From positions 480,001 to 544,000 of the forward strand of contig CAWBKB010000001.1 of NCBI GenBank assembly GCA_963789265.1: 64,000 bases of DNA. Reading direction: 5' to 3'. Position 1 is the stretch's first letter. Each line of letters starts with the position of its first letter. Under the pieces are notes generated by a model. The model had not been told where the DNA came from and ran no database searches. It saw only the letters and a program-made list of their open reading frames with translations. Made by a program: the position numbers and the translations under genes. This DNA comes from an uncultured delta proteobacterium. Lineage in GTDB: Bacteria; Desulfobacterota; Desulfomonilia; Desulfomonilales; Desulfomonilaceae. Below, in pieces: positions 47,540 to 55,187 of the stretch.

Positions 47540-47878
47540 ATGGACGACATCCTCATCCTTGCCCCGGCACAATGGAAACTCAAGAAGACCATACGGGTGT
47601 TGAACCAGACATTCAATGAGCTGAAGTTGGAAAAACACCCCGACAAAACCGCTATGGGGCGAATCGAGAAGGGATTCGATTTCCTCGGGTATCACTTCAG
47701 TCCGCAAGGACTGTCTCTCGCACAGAAGACCATCGACAACTTCGTCGAAAAAGCTCTCCGGCTTTATGAGCAAGAGCCGCCCCATCGAAGGATGAAGCGG
47801 CTCGGAGAGTACAGCCATAGGTGGGTTGGCTTGCAGCGTTGGTTTAGGCGTTCTCACCTTATGATGTTATGGGAATGA
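47540..47878 (+). pseudogene. 5'-truncated reverse transcriptase (palm end and thumb only)
   Basis: MDDILIL (YxDD remnant), HPDKT and GFDFLGY; RT motifs upstream of YxDD are absent. Confidence 0.8.
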
Positions 47879-47951: not shown

Positions 47952-49229
47952 CTAATATGTGCTCTCGCCTCCAGAAACAAGCGGGCCGGTTATACAGCCG
48001 CTGCGGGCGCTGATGTCGGTGAGCACTTCCAGACGGAAGTTCGGCTCAGTGGCTCCTGATGATATTAGGACGGAATCAAGGAAGCCTCCGGAGAGGAGAT
48101 TGCACCAACAAAATGTTGCAGTCGATGTCGTTACGGGCGGGATCGGATCTGTTAGCGGAGGGTTAGGATATAAATGCTCAAACGCGATTGTCGGGGCGAT
48201 GAGAACGCTTCCCTTAAGGTTAGGGCATACTGCAGGATTCGTACGTGCGAGCACAACCGCTTCCGGCTGATGCCAATACCGCTTGACCTTCAACCCCAAC
48301 AACCTTCTCAAGTCTCGGGGGCTCCTGAACACCGGCTCAGGCATGGTGAATGGGCTCTCGAAACTCAGCAGATTCTCCAACTGGAAGCCTACGTTCACGA
48401 ATCCGCCCACCGTATTGTAATAGCCGTCGATCCGGTCGTGCCCGTATTCGTATCTCAAAGTAAAGACGCCGTCTCTCGTAGTGAGGTCCGCGCCGCCCCG
48501 CCAGCCGTACACCGCGGTCCCGATATCAAACTGGTACCCGATGAGCTTGAGCCGCAAATCCAGAGACCGATTGAACAATGCATGTGAATAGCCGGCCTCA
48601 ACGTCAAAGCTATTCCCCTTGTTCCTGAAGGCATTGATGAGGACATCTCTATTGAAGAGGTTCCCGTACCAGTTGAAGTTCAGGTCAATGGCATCGTCTC
48701 CGGCAACGTTCGCTGCCATTTCCAGCCCGACTCCTCCGGATGAATACCACGTGTTGAACAGACGGGAAGAATCGTAGAAGCCGTTCACTCCCAGAAAGGT
48801 GTTCGTGCCCAGCATCGTGCGGTAACCGCCGCCGAAAGACAAATCGACCCTATTGTTCGTTCCCCCGGAAGATCTCTTCCAGAAATTCCAGCCTTCCGCA
48901 TGAGCCTCTCCGAACAGCACGGAATCACGGCTCACGCTAAAAGGGAGAACATAATCCGCAGTGAATCGCCCGGTACTCACCCTGTTGCCGAAATAGTCCA
49001 GGAAACCGAGTTCCAGGTTAGGGATTTTGGGGAGAAAAGGCGCAAGCATGCCACTGGACAGGGGTATGGCATCGCTCTCCCGAGAACATCCGCAATCGTT
49101 CGATGGATTGCTCTGACCGGGAAGTTCCGGGAGACCTTGTGCGTCCACAAAGGTGGAGAGAGTGCAGGCGAAAAGAAATAGGAAAGGCAGGACGAGCAGA
49201 ATCCACGCGGAAGGACGCGATTCCTCCAT
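47952..49229 (-). CDS. Inverse-autotransporter-type beta-barrel domain protein with short C-terminal region
   Basis: Signal peptide; SFGGGYR, LGVNGFYD, GVGLE, N.Y and G.D beta-strand motifs of the invasin/intimin barrel type. Confidence 0.7.
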   Translation of the reverse strand: MEESRPSAWILLVLPFLFLFACTLSTFVDAQGLPELPGQSNPSNDCGCSRESDAIPLSSGMLAPFLPKIPNLELGFLDYFGNRVSTGRFTADYVLPFSVSRDSVLFGEAHAEGWNFWKRSSGGTNNRVDLSFGGGYRTMLGTNTFLGVNGFYDSSRLFNTWYSSGGVGLEMAANVAGDDAIDLNFNWYGNLFNRDVLINAFRNKGNSFDVEAGYSHALFNRSLDLRLKLIGYQFDIGTAVYGWRGGADLTTRDGVFTLRYEYGHDRIDGYYNTVGGFVNVGFQLENLLSFESPFTMPEPVFRSPRDLRRLLGLKVKRYWHQPEAVVLARTNPAVCPNLKGSVLIAPTIAFEHLYPNPPLTDPIPPVTTSTATFCWCNLLSGGFLDSVLISSGATEPNFRLEVLTDISARSGCITGPLVSGGESTY

Positions 49230-49711: not shown

Positions 49712-50080
49712 TCATAGAGCCGATCTCACAGCCACTTGGAATATCTTTTTGTGATAGCTCACGGTGGCCCGTATTCTTAATTCTTTCGGATGGGCGTTTT
49801 GCCACCGCACTATCCTGGCATACTGGGCCCTGGCTCTTGACAGCAGCATCTCAAATCGGCCGGAGAAACGAGGCTTGGGCCGAATTTTTTCAGTAGGCCG
49901 TATCTGCTTTTTCCTCTGTTGCTCCAATTCTTGTGCAGCTTCCTTCAATGCCTGATCGAAGATAACCGCCTCCAGAGACTCCTCAGAGGCCAAGGCCGCG
50001 GCTTGAGAGACGCTTGCACCGTACAGGAATAGGCACAACACAATTAGCCACCTTGCAATTATGTGCTTCGAGGATCCCAT
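49712..50080 (-). CDS. Hypothetical exported protein
   Basis: Signal-like N-terminus, RBS ggag. Confidence 0.55.
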   Translation of the reverse strand: MGSSKHIIARWLIVLCLFLYGASVSQAAALASEESLEAVIFDQALKEAAQELEQQRKKQIRPTEKIRPKPRFSGRFEMLLSRARAQYARIVRWQNAHPKELRIRATVSYHKKIFQVAVRSAL

Positions 50081-50163
50081 AACCCCACTCCCACTCACTA
50101 ATTATGCTCTCTAAGATTCGTGAAAGTCAAAAAAGATTCAGAGTATTTTCGAGAGGTAATGAT

Positions 50164-50598: not shown

Positions 50599-52674
50599 TC
50601 ACAAACGCCGCTCGACAAGGATGACGGAAATCTCTCCCTCTCCGTACTGTTCCAGGTAGCGGCGATCCACTCCCACACAATGATCTATGTAGCAGCATCG
50701 GGCTTTAAGACATGCTTTCGGCGTCTCATTGTGCCCCATGTTGTCGGCATTGCTCACCATGTCATCGGCTTCTCGCCTCTTGATGCGCACTTCGTTCCGG
50801 CAGTTCCCAATATGTGGCAGGTGAGGAGCAATACAATAAGGCACGTTGTCAAGAATTGTCAGCGGATATTCCTGCGAGTTTATAGTGGACAATTTTTCTT
50901 TTAGAGAAGAGAGTCGGCACATGCGGCCTCTGTTGACATAAGCATTTCCATCCCATTCGGGCAGACACAGGCAATGGGCAGTAGTGCCGGCGAATCCCAG
51001 AATTTTATCCATGAGCCATTCTATCTCAGGCAGATTAAGTTCGTTAAGGCATGTGTTGACGCTAAGCCGTTCGGGTGAAACGTCATTTATCAGGCTGACA
51101 GCTCTGTACGCTTCCACAAAGCTGCCTTTCCGCCTGACGATTCGGTCGTGTGTTTCTCCGACCCCGTGCAGGGAAACCCAGAAATTCTTCATTCCCGCAT
51201 TTGTAAGTGAGAAAACCAGCTCTTCGGTTATTCCGAACCCATTGGTAAACATGAACAAGTTGTCGATTCCGTGTTCTTTTGCGAAACGAACGTAGTTCAC
51301 AAGCGAGGGGTTCAGAGTGGGTTCACCCGCGCCTGTAAAGAAAAGGGTCTTGATCCCTGCGCGGCTGGACTCCTCAATGAAATCGAATACTTCTTGATCC
51401 AAGTTAGGCGGGTTCTTACTCCTATCGTATGCCGGTGCGCAAAAGATGCAGTTGTTGGTGCACTCGAAACTTGAAAATACTACCGCCCCGGGTTCAGGCC
51501 ATCCCCAGACCAATGATCGCGATTTATCTGCACGGGTCGCGGTCCAGCCCTGCCATTTTTTCGGGTTGGTGAGAACCCGGTCTTCAACGAACGCGAATAC
51601 CTTTTTGTAAGTTTCACAGTACGGATCGGGGTGATCAGGGCTGCCTTCAGCGCTCATTGCTCTTACCGGACAGCCGCCATTGCAAAGTGGCAAATATTTG
51701 CAATCAAGGCATTCTGAGTTGCCGATCAAATTGGCCGTCCGCTCGGCGAGTTTCATTCTCATCGGCGATGTCAACAGCATGCCGAGATCATCGGATTCGA
51801 GAAGATTGCCAAAATTCCGGTCAGGATAGGAGCCCATCCACGCATCGCATTGACTCACTTCACCGCCGGGCCCGACGCAGAAAAAGCCATTTACGCAGTT
51901 TGGGCAGAAGAAGCACGGAATCTTTGCCGCAGCATCCCCCAATGTTATCCGTTCTACGATTCCCTCGTAAGGATCCAAGCGAACTCCGTCATCCCCGGAG
52001 AAGTAAACATCAAGCAGACCGACTAAGAAATCGCCCAGCATCGATGGGTCCAGGAACAATTGATCCGCCAGATGGGAAGCCGGTCCCGAGGCGAAGGGGG
52101 TATTCAATTGAATGCTCTTTAAGCCCAATTCATCTACGTAATACCGGTAAAAGTCCGAAGGGGACACTGAGAGAGTCTGTTTGTTGGGGACCGATATCAC
52201 GGACGCAGACAGGCCTCTGGAGCGAGCAATTCTGTACCTGTCAGCCCAGTGCTCATTATATGAATCGCCCGACAGGCCGCGGAATCTCCGGTGTACATTG
52301 GGATAATCCAGGGACGACCCGACGGTTCCGTCAAAAAGTTCCCATATCACCGGGTCCCAAACGGGATCGTAATCCATGAGGTTGGTCTGCAAATAAAGTT
52401 TAATTTTCAGATTGTGATTTGACATGAACGATCTTATCATACGGCCCGCTGTCAGACACCACTCGGGAGATAGAACCGTAATTTCTCCACCTTGCCAGTA
52501 CACGTCGACACTCTTAACTCCGGAGCGCGAAAGATACGAAGATATGCGGCTGAAAACAGTTTCCAAGTCTTCGAGGGACATGCTTTCCCGAGTTCTTGGT
52601 TCGAAACAGTACGCACAATTACAATTGCAATGGAAAGTAGGCACAAATATTATACTTACTTGAGGGCCGAACAT
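50599..52674 (-). CDS. Tandem radical SAM fusion: N-terminal rSAM/SPASM plus C-terminal HxsC-like rSAM
   Basis: CNCNCAYC, WQGGE, QTNL and SPASM CLDCKYLPLCNGGCP; then CTNNCIFC, GAGEPTL, FTNG, SLHG, NVPYC. Confidence 0.9.
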   Translation of the reverse strand: MFGPQVSIIFVPTFHCNCNCAYCFEPRTRESMSLEDLETVFSRISSYLSRSGVKSVDVYWQGGEITVLSPEWCLTAGRMIRSFMSNHNLKIKLYLQTNLMDYDPVWDPVIWELFDGTVGSSLDYPNVHRRFRGLSGDSYNEHWADRYRIARSRGLSASVISVPNKQTLSVSPSDFYRYYVDELGLKSIQLNTPFASGPASHLADQLFLDPSMLGDFLVGLLDVYFSGDDGVRLDPYEGIVERITLGDAAAKIPCFFCPNCVNGFFCVGPGGEVSQCDAWMGSYPDRNFGNLLESDDLGMLLTSPMRMKLAERTANLIGNSECLDCKYLPLCNGGCPVRAMSAEGSPDHPDPYCETYKKVFAFVEDRVLTNPKKWQGWTATRADKSRSLVWGWPEPGAVVFSSFECTNNCIFCAPAYDRSKNPPNLDQEVFDFIEESSRAGIKTLFFTGAGEPTLNPSLVNYVRFAKEHGIDNLFMFTNGFGITEELVFSLTNAGMKNFWVSLHGVGETHDRIVRRKGSFVEAYRAVSLINDVSPERLSVNTCLNELNLPEIEWLMDKILGFAGTTAHCLCLPEWDGNAYVNRGRMCRLSSLKEKLSTINSQEYPLTILDNVPYCIAPHLPHIGNCRNEVRIKRREADDMVSNADNMGHNETPKACLKARCCYIDHCVGVDRRYLEQYGEGEISVILVERRL

Positions 52675-52677
52675 AAT

Positions 52678-53520
52678 CTACTCCGCGACCTCTTCCGCTT
52701 TAGCAAGGTCATCGGCGATTTCCTTCGCGTTCACTTTGATCGCATTAAAAACTTCGAGAAAAGGTCCGCAGTCGAAGTCAGTGTCAACAAAACGAAGGTA
52801 GCCTTCACATAAATCGAACCTCTCGCAAGAAACGCATTTGGAACCGGACAAGACAAGGTCCTTTTTGCGGTTTATCAATTGCTTGTAAAGATCGGATTCT
52901 TCATCAATTTGCAGACCACCGGAAACCTCACCCAAGAACTTCCCGGCGCGGGCAAGTCTGGCAGAAGCCGTAACTCTTCCCAATTCGTCGACATAGAGGA
53001 ATTCCGACGGAGATTCAGGATAAAGTTTCGGGAGCGCCAACACGTTTCCTCTCAAACAGGCGCTGATCATGGAATGGAAAAAATCAACCGGAACCTGCAC
53101 ATGAGTGTCGTGCAAATAATAATTCAGTACGGACAACAGTTCACTTGTATCTGACAGCTCTTCAAGGTCCATCGTGACAGGGACCATAGCCGAGGCCGCG
53201 ATCTTCACACCTTGCAGGAGCCCTTTGTCCACATTAATAAGAGCTTCGAGTGAGAACCGATCGACGAGCCAGGTATTTGTGTAGAGCTGAGGAGCGCACT
53301 TTGGATGCAATTTGAGCCGAATCGGAAGCTGCAGCGGAAGAGCCGACAAACTATGCAGGTTCTCACTCGGATATTCCAACTCCACTCCCTTTACTCGATC
53401 GCCCAGCGTTTTATATGTGTTCACGATATCTCCGCAATTCCCTGAACGCAGGACGATATCATGAGAGTCGACTTCAGCAGCCAATCTCGGAGGAATACTT
53501 ATCAATGCTGAATTATGCAT
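52678..53520 (-). CDS. Degenerate rSAM/SPASM-like protein lacking CxxxCxxC
   Basis: Coupled to both neighbours; C-terminal CVSCERFDLCEG...C. Confidence 0.65.
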   Translation of the reverse strand: MHNSALISIPPRLAAEVDSHDIVLRSGNCGDIVNTYKTLGDRVKGVELEYPSENLHSLSALPLQLPIRLKLHPKCAPQLYTNTWLVDRFSLEALINVDKGLLQGVKIAASAMVPVTMDLEELSDTSELLSVLNYYLHDTHVQVPVDFFHSMISACLRGNVLALPKLYPESPSEFLYVDELGRVTASARLARAGKFLGEVSGGLQIDEESDLYKQLINRKKDLVLSGSKCVSCERFDLCEGYLRFVDTDFDCGPFLEVFNAIKVNAKEIADDLAKAEEVAE

Positions 53521-54601
53521 CAACTGCCTCGAAAAATTCCTTGTACCCTTCACACCAGATAGTCTTTCGCAGCCGCCCGGAAGCTGCCGCGCAGCCCCCG
53601 GCGCAATATTTCCACCAATTACAGGAACCGCACTCGTTTTGCGTGATCAACTTTCTCCTTTGGGAACGCCAAAACGCGTCGGGGTGAGATAGTAACTTGT
53701 CAAGCGGCTCAGAGGTTATGTTGCCGATTTTACCGGACGCGATGTCGAGGAGTCTCACGCACGGATAAACGTCACCTTCCGGCGAGATAGCCAAAGTAGG
53801 CTCGCAACAGTTCAGAGACTCAGAGTACGTCCGAGTGGAATCAGAGTCAACTGACGAAATTTCTTCCCAATTTACGAACGGTTCGACGGGCAACGAACTA
53901 TCGTCCCCTTTCCATGCGCGGTGAACTTCTCTGAGAAAAAGCCCCCAGGATCGCGGGTCCAGACGGGCACCTTCGAACGTATTCGCGGGCTCTTCAAGAG
54001 GTATAAGAGTTAGGCTATCCACTCCCAGGTTCTTGAAATAGTAATAGATTTCCTTGCCACGGTCTATTGATCGACCGTGCACAACATACACCATTCCAAC
54101 GTGAAATCCGCGACTTCTGACAATCTCGAAGCCCTCATACCAACGTTTCAGATAAGAGTCCCCGTTCTTGAGCCTCCTATAGTCCTGGAACGGATCAAGA
54201 GAAGTCCCGATCCCGCCTCCATTCAGAAGCTCGGCCAGAGTGTCTGCAAGCCCTTCTGTTGCCAACGTCAAATTGGACTGCATTATGTGCATCGGGCTGT
54301 TCTTGAGGATCGTTCGGTTTAGCTCCAAGACCTTCTTGTAAAAGGGCTCGCCCATCAGCATGGGTTCTCCCCCATGCCATAGGATTGTCATGTGACAGCC
54401 CGGATTTCCTTCCATGTAATTCGCGAGATTTCGGAACGTGCATTCAACGAGGGCGGGATCGGCGATTTTCGGCCTTTCTGCGACATTGCAGTAAGCGCAC
54501 TTCCCGTTGCATTGGAGAGTCGGTTTGATAACAACTTCAATGCACTTGGGCGCTTCACAGTTATTTTCAGAGGTATATGCCATAGTCAGTGGAGCCGCCA
54601 A
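53513..54601 (-). CDS. Radical SAM/SPASM peptide maturase
   Basis: KPTLQCNGKCAYC, WHGGEP, QSNL, SLD, ISPEGDVYPC, CGSCNWWKYCAGGC...C. Confidence 0.92.
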   Translation of the reverse strand: MAAPLTMAYTSENNCEAPKCIEVVIKPTLQCNGKCAYCNVAERPKIADPALVECTFRNLANYMEGNPGCHMTILWHGGEPMLMGEPFYKKVLELNRTILKNSPMHIMQSNLTLATEGLADTLAELLNGGGIGTSLDPFQDYRRLKNGDSYLKRWYEGFEIVRSRGFHVGMVYVVHGRSIDRGKEIYYYFKNLGVDSLTLIPLEEPANTFEGARLDPRSWGLFLREVHRAWKGDDSSLPVEPFVNWEEISSVDSDSTRTYSESLNCCEPTLAISPEGDVYPCVRLLDIASGKIGNITSEPLDKLLSHPDAFWRSQRRKLITQNECGSCNWWKYCAGGCAAASGRLRKTIWCEGYKEFFEAVDA

Positions 54602-54833: not shown

Positions 54834-55187
54834 CTACCAATTACCCCACACACGGCGGTGCCGCCGCCGCCAGGGCCTGTTGCCCCACACACGGCAGCCG
54901 CCGTTACCCCACACGCGGCATCCATACCACCGCCTACCGCCGTTACCCCACACTCGGCAGCGCAAGAACTGAGATTCCATGGACTCGTCGTTTGTCCCCT
55001 CCTGGTCTGGGAGACCTTCGCGGGTCGCACCCGGTTCCAACGATTCCCTCGGTCCTTCGTCGGAGCCGGATGCTTCGGAAATCCCCAGGACAGCAGTGGC
55101 CACCACTATCGACGACCATTTGCCGAGACTCGTGAGAAATGATCTCCTGCTTAGAGTCTCGTCGTCTTTCTTGTTCTTGTCGTCCAT
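54834..55187 (-). CDS. Putative RiPP precursor (twin-arginine leader; core with CRVWGN x3 and RRVWGNW)
   Basis: Strong RBS ggagga; SRRSFL followed by a hydrophobic stretch; acidic spacer; Arg/Gly/Trp core; directly upstream of the rSAM genes. Confidence 0.88.
   Translation of the reverse strand: MDDKNKKDDETLSRRSFLTSLGKWSSIVVATAVLGISEASGSDEGPRESLEPGATREGLPDQEGTNDESMESQFLRCRVWGNGGRRWYGCRVWGNGGCRVWGNRPWRRRHRRVWGNW

Follow-up and report, generated by a model that had tools for sequence, protein, structure and literature searches.

A fused pair of radical SAM domains as a probable bifunctional maturase in a Trp-Gly-Asn repeat peptide operon of a Desulfomonilaceae-like bacterium

Does a single reading frame that carries the active-site motifs of two radical S-adenosylmethionine (SAM) enzymes represent a genuine fusion, and if so, in what pathway do its two halves act? 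The question is raised by a gene on the minus strand of a 64,000-nucleotide stretch of DNA (the whole of which we call the window) from an uncultured delta proteobacterium of a Desulfomonilaceae-like taxon (assembly GCA_963789265.1, contig CAWBKB010000001.1, positions 480,001 to 544,000). An earlier note on the window had read the gene as a fusion of two enzymes resembling HxsB and HxsC of the His-Xaa-Ser (HXS) system, acting on a Trp-Gly-Asn substrate. In what follows, N and T denote the first and second halves of the fusion, and S and P the products of the two genes that precede it. We find that the fusion is real, and sequence comparison makes it probable that the 691-residue protein is a bifunctional maturase in an S/P/N/T pathway that modifies (C)RVWGN units of a precursor peptide. 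The parts of the gene are the following.

50599..52674, minus strand: N-T fusion gene, ATG start, 691 amino acids plus stop
51571..52674, minus strand: N domain, residues 1-368, anSME/DynA-like radical SAM-SPASM
52606-52629, minus strand: SAM-cluster motif of N, residues 16-23
51616-51915, minus strand: SPASM cysteines of N, residues 254-353
51475-51570, minus strand: linker, residues 369-400, variable save for an L-x-W-G-W-x-x-P core
50602..51474, minus strand: T domain, residues 401-691, second complete radical SAM domain
51439-51462, minus strand: SAM-cluster motif of T, residues 405-412
residues 448-452: GAGEP motif of T
50671-50835, minus strand: C-terminal Cys 614, 655, 660 and 666 of T, invariant family-wide

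The 691-residue frame with its two CxxxCxxC motifs is present as claimed, on the minus strand; the plus-strand reading of 50599..52674 is riddled with stops. A script search for CX3CX2C returns two sites, CNCNCAYC (residues 16-23) and CTNNCIFC (405-412), and both of the cysteine sets said to follow these motifs were located. Behind motif 1 lie SPASM-type cysteines (254, 257, 260, 266 and 276, a CX2CX5CX3C core at 322-335, and Cys 353), and behind motif 2 lie NVPYC (Cys 614) and C655-x4-C660-C661-x4-C666-x-G668; a SPASM-type set in the first half and none in the second agree with the layout claimed. Pfam Radical_SAM (PF04055) matches two stretches of the protein (85.4 bits against a cut-off of 29.5, the best at residues 404-556), which together with the motif sets conserved in an alignment of 18 rows (17 relatives, three of which are truncated at the N-terminus, plus the window protein) places the observation beyond chance.

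The junction had been placed at ~51480-51570, in agreement with the linker given above, and the single frame might in principle result from an indel or an assembly mis-join that merged two neighboring genes. A word-indexed search of 5.8 billion proteins provides the 17 fusion relatives (638-697 amino acids, 56-82% identity over 92-100% of the query), which come from JGI, NCBI, ENA and Logan assemblies and include two named as Desulfomonilaceae or Deltaproteobacteria metagenome-assembled genome proteins. Motif 2, the SPASM cysteines and Cys 614/655/660/666 are invariant across the 18 aligned rows, motif 1 is found in each of the 15 rows that extend as far as the N-terminus, and the linker is continuous throughout, with L388, W390, G391, W392 and P395 invariant. 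A scan of one genome per prokaryote species yields 10 loci, at 8 of which an open reading frame (ORF) of 683-698 amino acids is uninterrupted; the shorter ORFs at the other two (L011 and L017; 638 and 559 amino acids) break inside the N-half, away from the junction. Eight further N-T loci are found in metagenomes. Since the same frame occurs in independent relatives and genome loci, the fusion is real and no assembly artefact.

What speaks for a mis-join is that the reads of the source assembly were only partly inspected and that the public contigs identical to the window are short. One contig from a soil metagenome (100% identical) covers 51497-51647, which is the greater part of the linker; no contig extends over the entire gene or over 51475-51496, and 51371-51496 is without contig cover apart from marginal depth. 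The contigs come from two DNA runs, which contain 0.38 and 0.22 of the sampled words; the look-up of sequencing runs returned three, from one study, and no RNA data set. Set against this are the continuous frame and conserved linker motif in 17 relatives from several sources, the intact frame at 8 of 10 genome loci and at 8 metagenome loci, and the fact that the two broken genome loci break elsewhere, all of which leaves a mis-join with hardly any probability. An indel artefact at the junction is excluded for practical purposes. The two halves are naturally joined, as the fused homologs from independent assemblies attest, and where the earlier note had proposed to look for both fused and split homologs, both kinds were found.

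The fusion is the last gene of an operon that runs on one strand in the order precursor, S, P and N-T. The earlier note had overlooked two of these genes, namely a second radical SAM-SPASM gene (S) and that of a radical SAM-fold protein without the SAM-cluster motif (P), while the Trp-Gly-Asn repeat substrate that it proposed is indeed encoded at the operon head.

54834..55187, minus strand: precursor gene, 117 amino acids, GGAGGAG 5 nt before the ATG at 55187
53513..54601, minus strand: S, separate radical SAM-SPASM enzyme, 362 amino acids, Pfam Radical_SAM and SPASM
52678..53520, minus strand: P, 280 amino acids, radical SAM-SPASM fold without CX3CX2C

The C-terminal core of the precursor has four W-G-N units, at residues 80, 93, 101 and 114, three of them as CRVWGN and the last as RVWGNW at the C-terminus. 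Precursors with at least two WGN units (2-5 CRVWG[NH] units) are encoded at 9 of the 10 genome loci, and also at L052, L053 and L055. The consensus of a twin-arginine translocation (Tat) signal comprises an S/T-R-R-x-F-L-K motif, a hydrophobic stretch and a cleavage site of the A-x-A type. The N-terminal leader of the precursor, SRRSFLTSLGKWSSIVVATAVLG, is Tat-like; SRRSFL is followed by WSSIVVATAVLGISEA, as read by eye in the translation and conserved in relatives, and the leader looks like a twin-arginine signal. The model of GrrA/OscA1 (TIGR04260) gives no match to the window precursor, and a scan for promoters and terminators returned nothing above shuffled expectation. At one of the related loci (L015, 3120-3855) there are two tandem precursor genes, the second of which has three CRVWGH units before two CRVWGN units, which suggests that His can replace Asn at position 3.

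S, for which the listed start is TTG and the true start possibly a few codons downstream, scores 138.8 bits with DynA, 137.5 bits with TIGR04083 and 135.4 bits with anSME, all below the cut-offs, and 58.6 bits with GrrM (cut-off 310). Its residues 22-358 align with anSMEcpe (4k37), and the S module is conserved upstream of P at related loci. The first 8 nt of P are also the last 8 nt of S, and 3 nt separate the stop of P from the fusion ATG. P retains CX2CX5CXG and one further Cys and lacks the SAM-cluster CX3CX2C. No Pfam or NCBIfam family is matched by P; its predicted structure (predicted local distance difference test, pLDDT, 93.5) retrieves ChlB first in Foldseek. The family is widespread, and the ESM Atlas clusters that contain it are all named "hypothetical protein". 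Taken together with the model, P looks like a catalytically dead radical SAM-SPASM paralog. P was also considered as a degenerate copy of T, and this was rejected: a profile-profile comparison of the two families finds nothing in common beyond the Cys motif at the C-terminus (33 columns, probability 17%), and P does not seem to be T-derived since fold searches point to the anSME/ChlB type.

The N domain aligns end to end (residues 4-367) with anSMEcpe 4k37. Its scores with curated families are 117.6 bits for DynA (NF041298; cut-off 450; residues 10-368 on profile positions 5-354 of 356), 113.7 bits for TIGR04083 (cut-off 300) and 104.9 bits for anSME (TIGR03942; cut-off 349.45). Judged by these profiles, N appears to be a complete radical SAM-SPASM enzyme of the anSME/cyclophane-synthase type that falls outside every curated family. 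The comparison with HxsB fares less well, as the HxsB model (TIGR03978), for which the cut-off is 370, reaches 57.1 bits and covers no more than residues 9-143, whereas DynA, TIGR04083 and anSME match end to end.

The substrate preference of N can be approached through loci where its relatives occur unfused. Of the 401 genomes sampled from the phylum, 17 contain P, the window's own genome among them. At five of the loci (L026-L030) the layout is precursor, P and a radical SAM-SPASM enzyme; the precursors share the leader type of the window precursor and carry 6-13 Gly-rich W-x-N units, and the enzyme, wherever it is present in the locus, is of N type (376-410 bits with the N model vs. 109-117 with that of S). 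The L027 precursor weakly matches the GrrA/OscA1 model of cyclophane RiPPs (peptides made on the ribosome and modified after translation) with 20.7 bits against a cut-off of 31. The window's own genome has a paralogous cluster of this kind (G000 contig C7, locus L019, 8441-11119, minus strand), in which the precursor, at 204-223 amino acids longer than that of the window, combines a spacer rich in Lys and His with six units of the form [AG]W[STGA]N and three of the form CRVWGN. The P homolog of this cluster is 45% identical to the window P, and a stand-alone N homolog of 373 amino acids (57% identical) ends where the linker would begin; S and T are absent, and amidohydrolase-like and transposase-like genes follow. 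Since the N-type enzyme is constant with W-x-N repeats, N is probably the W-x-N enzyme, and by analogy with known pathways it is probably a three-residue Trp-to-Asn-C-beta cyclophane synthase.

The analogy extends over several features. DynA of dynobactin makes a Trp1-Asn3 carbon-carbon link. Like DynA and the triceptide synthases (ChlB, XyeB, GrrM/OscB and YhhB), N and S are anSME-type radical SAM-SPASM proteins without an N-terminal recognition domain, the substrate units are repeated aromatic-X-X motifs (here W-G-N), and a radical SAM-SPASM maturase lies beside an aromatic-X-X precursor (four W-G-N units, with N and S in the operon). The Gly-rich W-x-N repeats of the related three-gene systems are likewise similar to those of GrrA/OscA1. 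The window differs in that N and S miss the cut-offs of DynA and GrrM, respectively, and in having the cluster-less P, the non-SPASM T, the N-T fusion and a twin-arginine-like leader. In PMC11499958, the defining feature of triceptides is an aromatic-to-C-beta link that is made on aromatic-X-X motifs.

The second half of the fusion is more distant from any curated family. The best NCBIfam scorer on T alone is HxsC4 (NF038332) with 77.8 bits against a cut-off of 500, over the radical SAM core only (profile positions 24-175 of 335), and NirJ1, MoaA and others are next, near 50 bits. HxsC itself (TIGR03977) gives 35.1 bits against a cut-off of 267.9 (profile positions 32-217 of 292). In its own genome T is the top scorer with HxsC4 (68.3 vs. 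53.5 bits); with the HxsC model nine other radical SAM genes outscore it and T is tenth. When 1.84 billion cluster representatives were searched exhaustively with HMMER, 7994 relatives of T came up at E<=0.001, of which 46 reach E<=1e-30. Each of the 30 sequences in the T-family alignment matches HxsC4 and HxsC, some of them full-length, and distant stand-alone members match HxsC4 full-length with up to 216 bits, which is still below the cut-off. On these scores T is a distant relative of the HxsC4/HxsC group and not a member. The scan of each half with hidden Markov models (HMMs) that the earlier note had proposed leads from N to DynA, TIGR04083 and anSME, and from T to HxsC4 and HxsC, always below cut-off; the description of the C-terminal half as HxsC-like holds as far as HxsC4 is the best NCBIfam family and the whole T family matches, and fails where membership is concerned.

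When T is aligned with stand-alone relatives of ~300 amino acids, the SAM-cluster triad and Cys 614/655/660/666 are invariant, and four family-wide extra cysteines are enough for one auxiliary cluster. The AlphaFold2 model of T is confident (pLDDT 90.7), its top fold match is the peptide maturase SkfB, and a profile search of PDB sequences with T returns the sugar-nucleotide decarboxylase BlsE first (E 2.6e-31). The model and the cysteines together suggest that T is a twitch-type radical SAM enzyme with one predicted auxiliary cluster, as are SkfB and BlsE, its best fold and sequence matches, and MoaA, another of the top folds. The likeness is limited by an identity of only 17-20%, by the lack in T of the N-terminal region of SkfB, and by a C-terminal Cys spacing (P-x-C ... 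CX2-4CX5CXG) that is T's own.

The match to BlsE also bears on what T acts on. If T worked on a non-peptide substrate, either a small molecule or a cofactor, the fusion would reflect co-regulation only, and the high rank by fold of MoaA, viperin and GDGT-MAS is in keeping with such a role. We consider this quite improbable, as the top fold match is a peptide maturase, and T is fused to three different peptide-pathway modules across lineages and constantly stands beside P and N.

An outgroup of the T family that is HxsC4-like forms arrays of up to 7-8 T genes per locus (metagenome loci L083, L088 and L112) and polypeptides of ~600-1400 amino acids with two, three or four CX3CX2C domains (P0175, P0180 and P0268), none of which comes up to an NCBIfam cut-off.

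It is from the permutations of the modules that the place of T in the pathway is best seen. The order precursor, S, P and N-T recurs at the 10 genome loci, where S and P were judged by position, length and end sequences. Among 80 metagenome loci, the ORFs of which were typed with purpose-built HMMs for S, P, N and T, P is present at 15; N and T accompany it at all 15, S at 11, and T is fused at 14. The layouts of these 15 loci are S, P and N-T at 8 (L051 is cut inside P, and L053 and L054 look like duplicates), P-T and N at 4 (one with S), T-S, P and N at 2, and all modules separate at 1 (L062). Over all collected proteins, the counts are 28 for N-T, 27 for P-T, 17 for T-S, 3 for T-P and 1 for P-T-N, numbers that carry the bias of the collection. 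T is nearly always welded to some partner, and the recurrent fusion together with the co-occurrence places T in the same pathway as N, P and S, and, as these associations suggest, probably in the same complex. Full-length T orthologs are rare, with 2 in the 401 sampled genomes of the phylum, where nine others match the radical SAM core only. No precursor was recognized among the small ORFs of three of the loci with P-T and N (L058-L060).

A tree of 104 T domains (FastTree, midpoint root, SH-like support), which omits all T-T, T-T-T and T-T-T-T rows and takes the 35 best-scoring of 159 stand-alone T rows, gathers the P-, N- and S-linked T domains in one clade of 73 rows with support 99. The N-T rows of the window type group together as 22 rows (one of them a fragment; support 99) beside four P-T rows, inside a clade of 26 rows with support 100. 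A second N-T protein (P0153) is placed elsewhere, among P-T rows, which means that the N-T fusion arose at least twice.

Within the linker of the window-type proteins, the motif VWGWPEPG (residues 389-396; 51487-51510) is invariant in 18 of 18 aligned N-T proteins, and the rest of the linker varies. The motif resembles the substrate unit RVWGN(W) and is missing from the linker of the independently arisen P0153; it could serve as a plug at the domain interface or as a pseudo-substrate. No fusion seen is more complete than a protein of 950 amino acids (P0177) with P-T-N on one chain, which has CX3CX2C at 292 and 584 and a SPASM core at 887.

The tethering of T to a partner module at 14 of the 15 loci also invites the view that N and T are two radical generators for one transformation. 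A precedent is FbiC, the FO synthase and a CofG-CofH fusion, which carries two complete radical SAM domains on one chain and also occurs as two genes, and in which two 5'-deoxyadenosyl radicals build one product (PMC11917521). FbiC differs in that it makes a cofactor from small molecules and in that its halves come from families to which N and T are not related. In the three-gene systems and the C7 paralog, N-type enzymes get by without T, and T is fused to P or S as often as to N, two findings that make a single shared transformation unlikely.

The comparison with the HXS system needs to be considered separately. According to PMC13128918, HXS comprises the SPASM radical SAM enzyme HxsB, the non-SPASM radical SAM enzyme HxsC bound to the small HxsD, and an exported His-x-Ser effector. 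The window resembles it in pairing a SPASM with a non-SPASM radical SAM enzyme, in associating the non-SPASM enzyme with a non-catalytic partner (P, by prediction, here and HxsD there), in a predicted export of a substrate with three-residue repeats, and in that HxsC4 and HxsC are the curated families nearest to the T family. It differs in that the enzymes are fused, the Hxs cut-offs are all missed widely, the repeats are W-G-N rather than H-x-S, P is a 280-residue radical SAM-fold protein rather than a small HxsD, and the taxon is Desulfomonilaceae-like rather than of the Pseudomonadota. Six neighboring ORFs were scanned without a match to HxsA or HxsD (TIGR03976), Hxs models appearing only as weak radical SAM-core matches, and HxS repeats are absent from the precursor. 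An Hxs system proper is therefore not encoded in the scanned cluster, and what survives of the HxsB/HxsC-like pair is the fusion itself, a SPASM half joined to a distant HxsC relative, and a precursor with WGN repeats; membership in Hxs does not survive, and the fusion is one of several permutations.

The cassette might still be a functional analogue of the HXS antiphage system, with the repeat protein serving as a periplasmic defense effector and no diffusible product. That T, distantly related to HxsC, is tied to a partner (P), that the substrate has a leader of the export type and three-residue aromatic-x-Asn repeats, and that the operon lacks a peptidase or exporter gene would all suit this explanation. 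It is weakened by the failure of every Hxs model to reach its cut-off, by a PADLOC search that gave only generic pVip (viperin) radical SAM-core matches, by the lack of noticed phage or defense genes adjoining the operon, and by the reported restriction of 99.7% of HXS systems to Pseudomonadota (PMC13128918), and we regard a defense role as improbable.

The maturase reading can be worked out as a sequence of steps, and both halves of the fusion retain every residue class expected of an active radical SAM enzyme. P would hold the conserved leader (RRxFL...KWS) and present the repeats. N, as the core enzyme, would abstract a hydrogen from the Asn beta-carbon of each W-x-N unit, and this carbon would then be coupled to the Trp ring, so that a cyclophane of three residues results, as it does in triceptides. 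T, joined to N in this operon and to P or S at other loci, would draw on a SAM cluster of its own plus one auxiliary cluster and, kept close to N or P, carry out a second hydrogen abstraction of a different kind on those units. This step might, very tentatively, be a further cross-link or a thioether, a guess that follows from SkfB being the nearest fold. S would add another cross-link, and the Tat-like leader would carry the product to the periplasm.

Several points weigh against this reading. The reaction assignments are all inferred, and every curated family score is far below its cut-off. Pfam SPASM (PF13186 / TIGR04085) is unreported on the fusion at E<=0.01, and the SPASM domain of N is recognized only by the Cys pattern and the end-to-end anSME alignment. 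The Tat assignment stems from a motif spotted by eye, and the operon has no peptidase or exporter gene. The solved folds nearest to T include the non-peptide enzymes BlsE, MoaA and viperin. Other S/T-bearing precursors have no Cys and have Tyr/His-x-Asp/Asn units, and the C7 paralog has CRVWGN units with neither S nor T beside it; the roles of S and T cannot be read from the precursors. The precursors concerned carry W-R-N/W-H-N units (L056), Y-S-D/H-T-N/W-G-N units (L062) and Y-S-D/W-S-N/W-T-N units (L065). The Cys of CRVWGN had been considered as the reason for the presence of S and T together, and was ruled out by these three Cys-less precursors.

A broader version of the maturase reading has S/P/N/T as an undescribed multi-radical-SAM assembly line, in which the dead P holds the substrate and T works only when tethered; T would there subject repeat peptides (W-x-N, Y-x-D and H-x-N) that are exported through Tat to a chemistry that cyclophane RiPPs have not shown so far. 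We think of this as a possibility to be entertained with considerable doubt. If it were true, the fusion would keep T soluble and stoichiometric and could show what HxsC-type enzymes do, and the P family would add a new example of a pseudo-enzyme as a RiPP partner.

New cross-link chemistry comes in large part from radical SAM peptide maturases, and most known cyclophane pathways have one enzyme per precursor. Cyclophane RiPP pathways with radical SAM-SPASM enzymes, paired radical SAM systems (HXS) and polypeptides with two radical SAM domains (FbiC) are already known; what is new is that three radical enzymes are combined with a dead paralog, that the HxsC-like module is promiscuously fused, and that a Tat-like leader occurs together with (C)RVWGN units. 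In the limited library that was searched, the literature on proteins with two radical SAM domains covers only FbiC and fusions of radical SAM with HExxH, with no fusion of two radical SAM peptide maturases, and holds nothing that joins radical SAM, cyclophane and twin-arginine and nothing on pseudo-radical SAM partners. The modules, welded in at least four orders, provide a ready-made map of which partners work together. For HxsC of the HXS system, a change of +8 Da was reported in 2026, with the mechanism left to further study and the enzymes not reconstituted in vitro (PMC13128918), and a natural, stoichiometric N-T protein with a short repetitive substrate would be a more tractable entry to HxsC-type enzymes.

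A different three-gene set is found around P at six further loci (L031-L036, in G173, G203, G124, G054, G303 and G321). It consists, in this order, of a non-SPASM radical SAM protein of 332-345 amino acids (CX3CX2C at residue 10), a P homolog and an S-like radical SAM-SPASM protein of 367-465 amino acids, and no precursor was identified at these loci.

Downstream of the fusion in the window lie two minus-strand genes with signal-peptide-like N-termini, at 47952-49229 (425 amino acids) and 49712-50098 (128 amino acids). At locus L009 the gap between the fusion and an IclR-like gene is ~1.8 kb shorter, which means that at least one of the two is not a conserved part of the cassette. Between these downstream neighbors and the IclR-type regulator gene of the window, a plus-strand ORF of 112 amino acids (47540-47878) resembles, by eye, the C-terminal portion of a group II intron or retron reverse transcriptase; it starts at DDILIL and is an apparent fragment.

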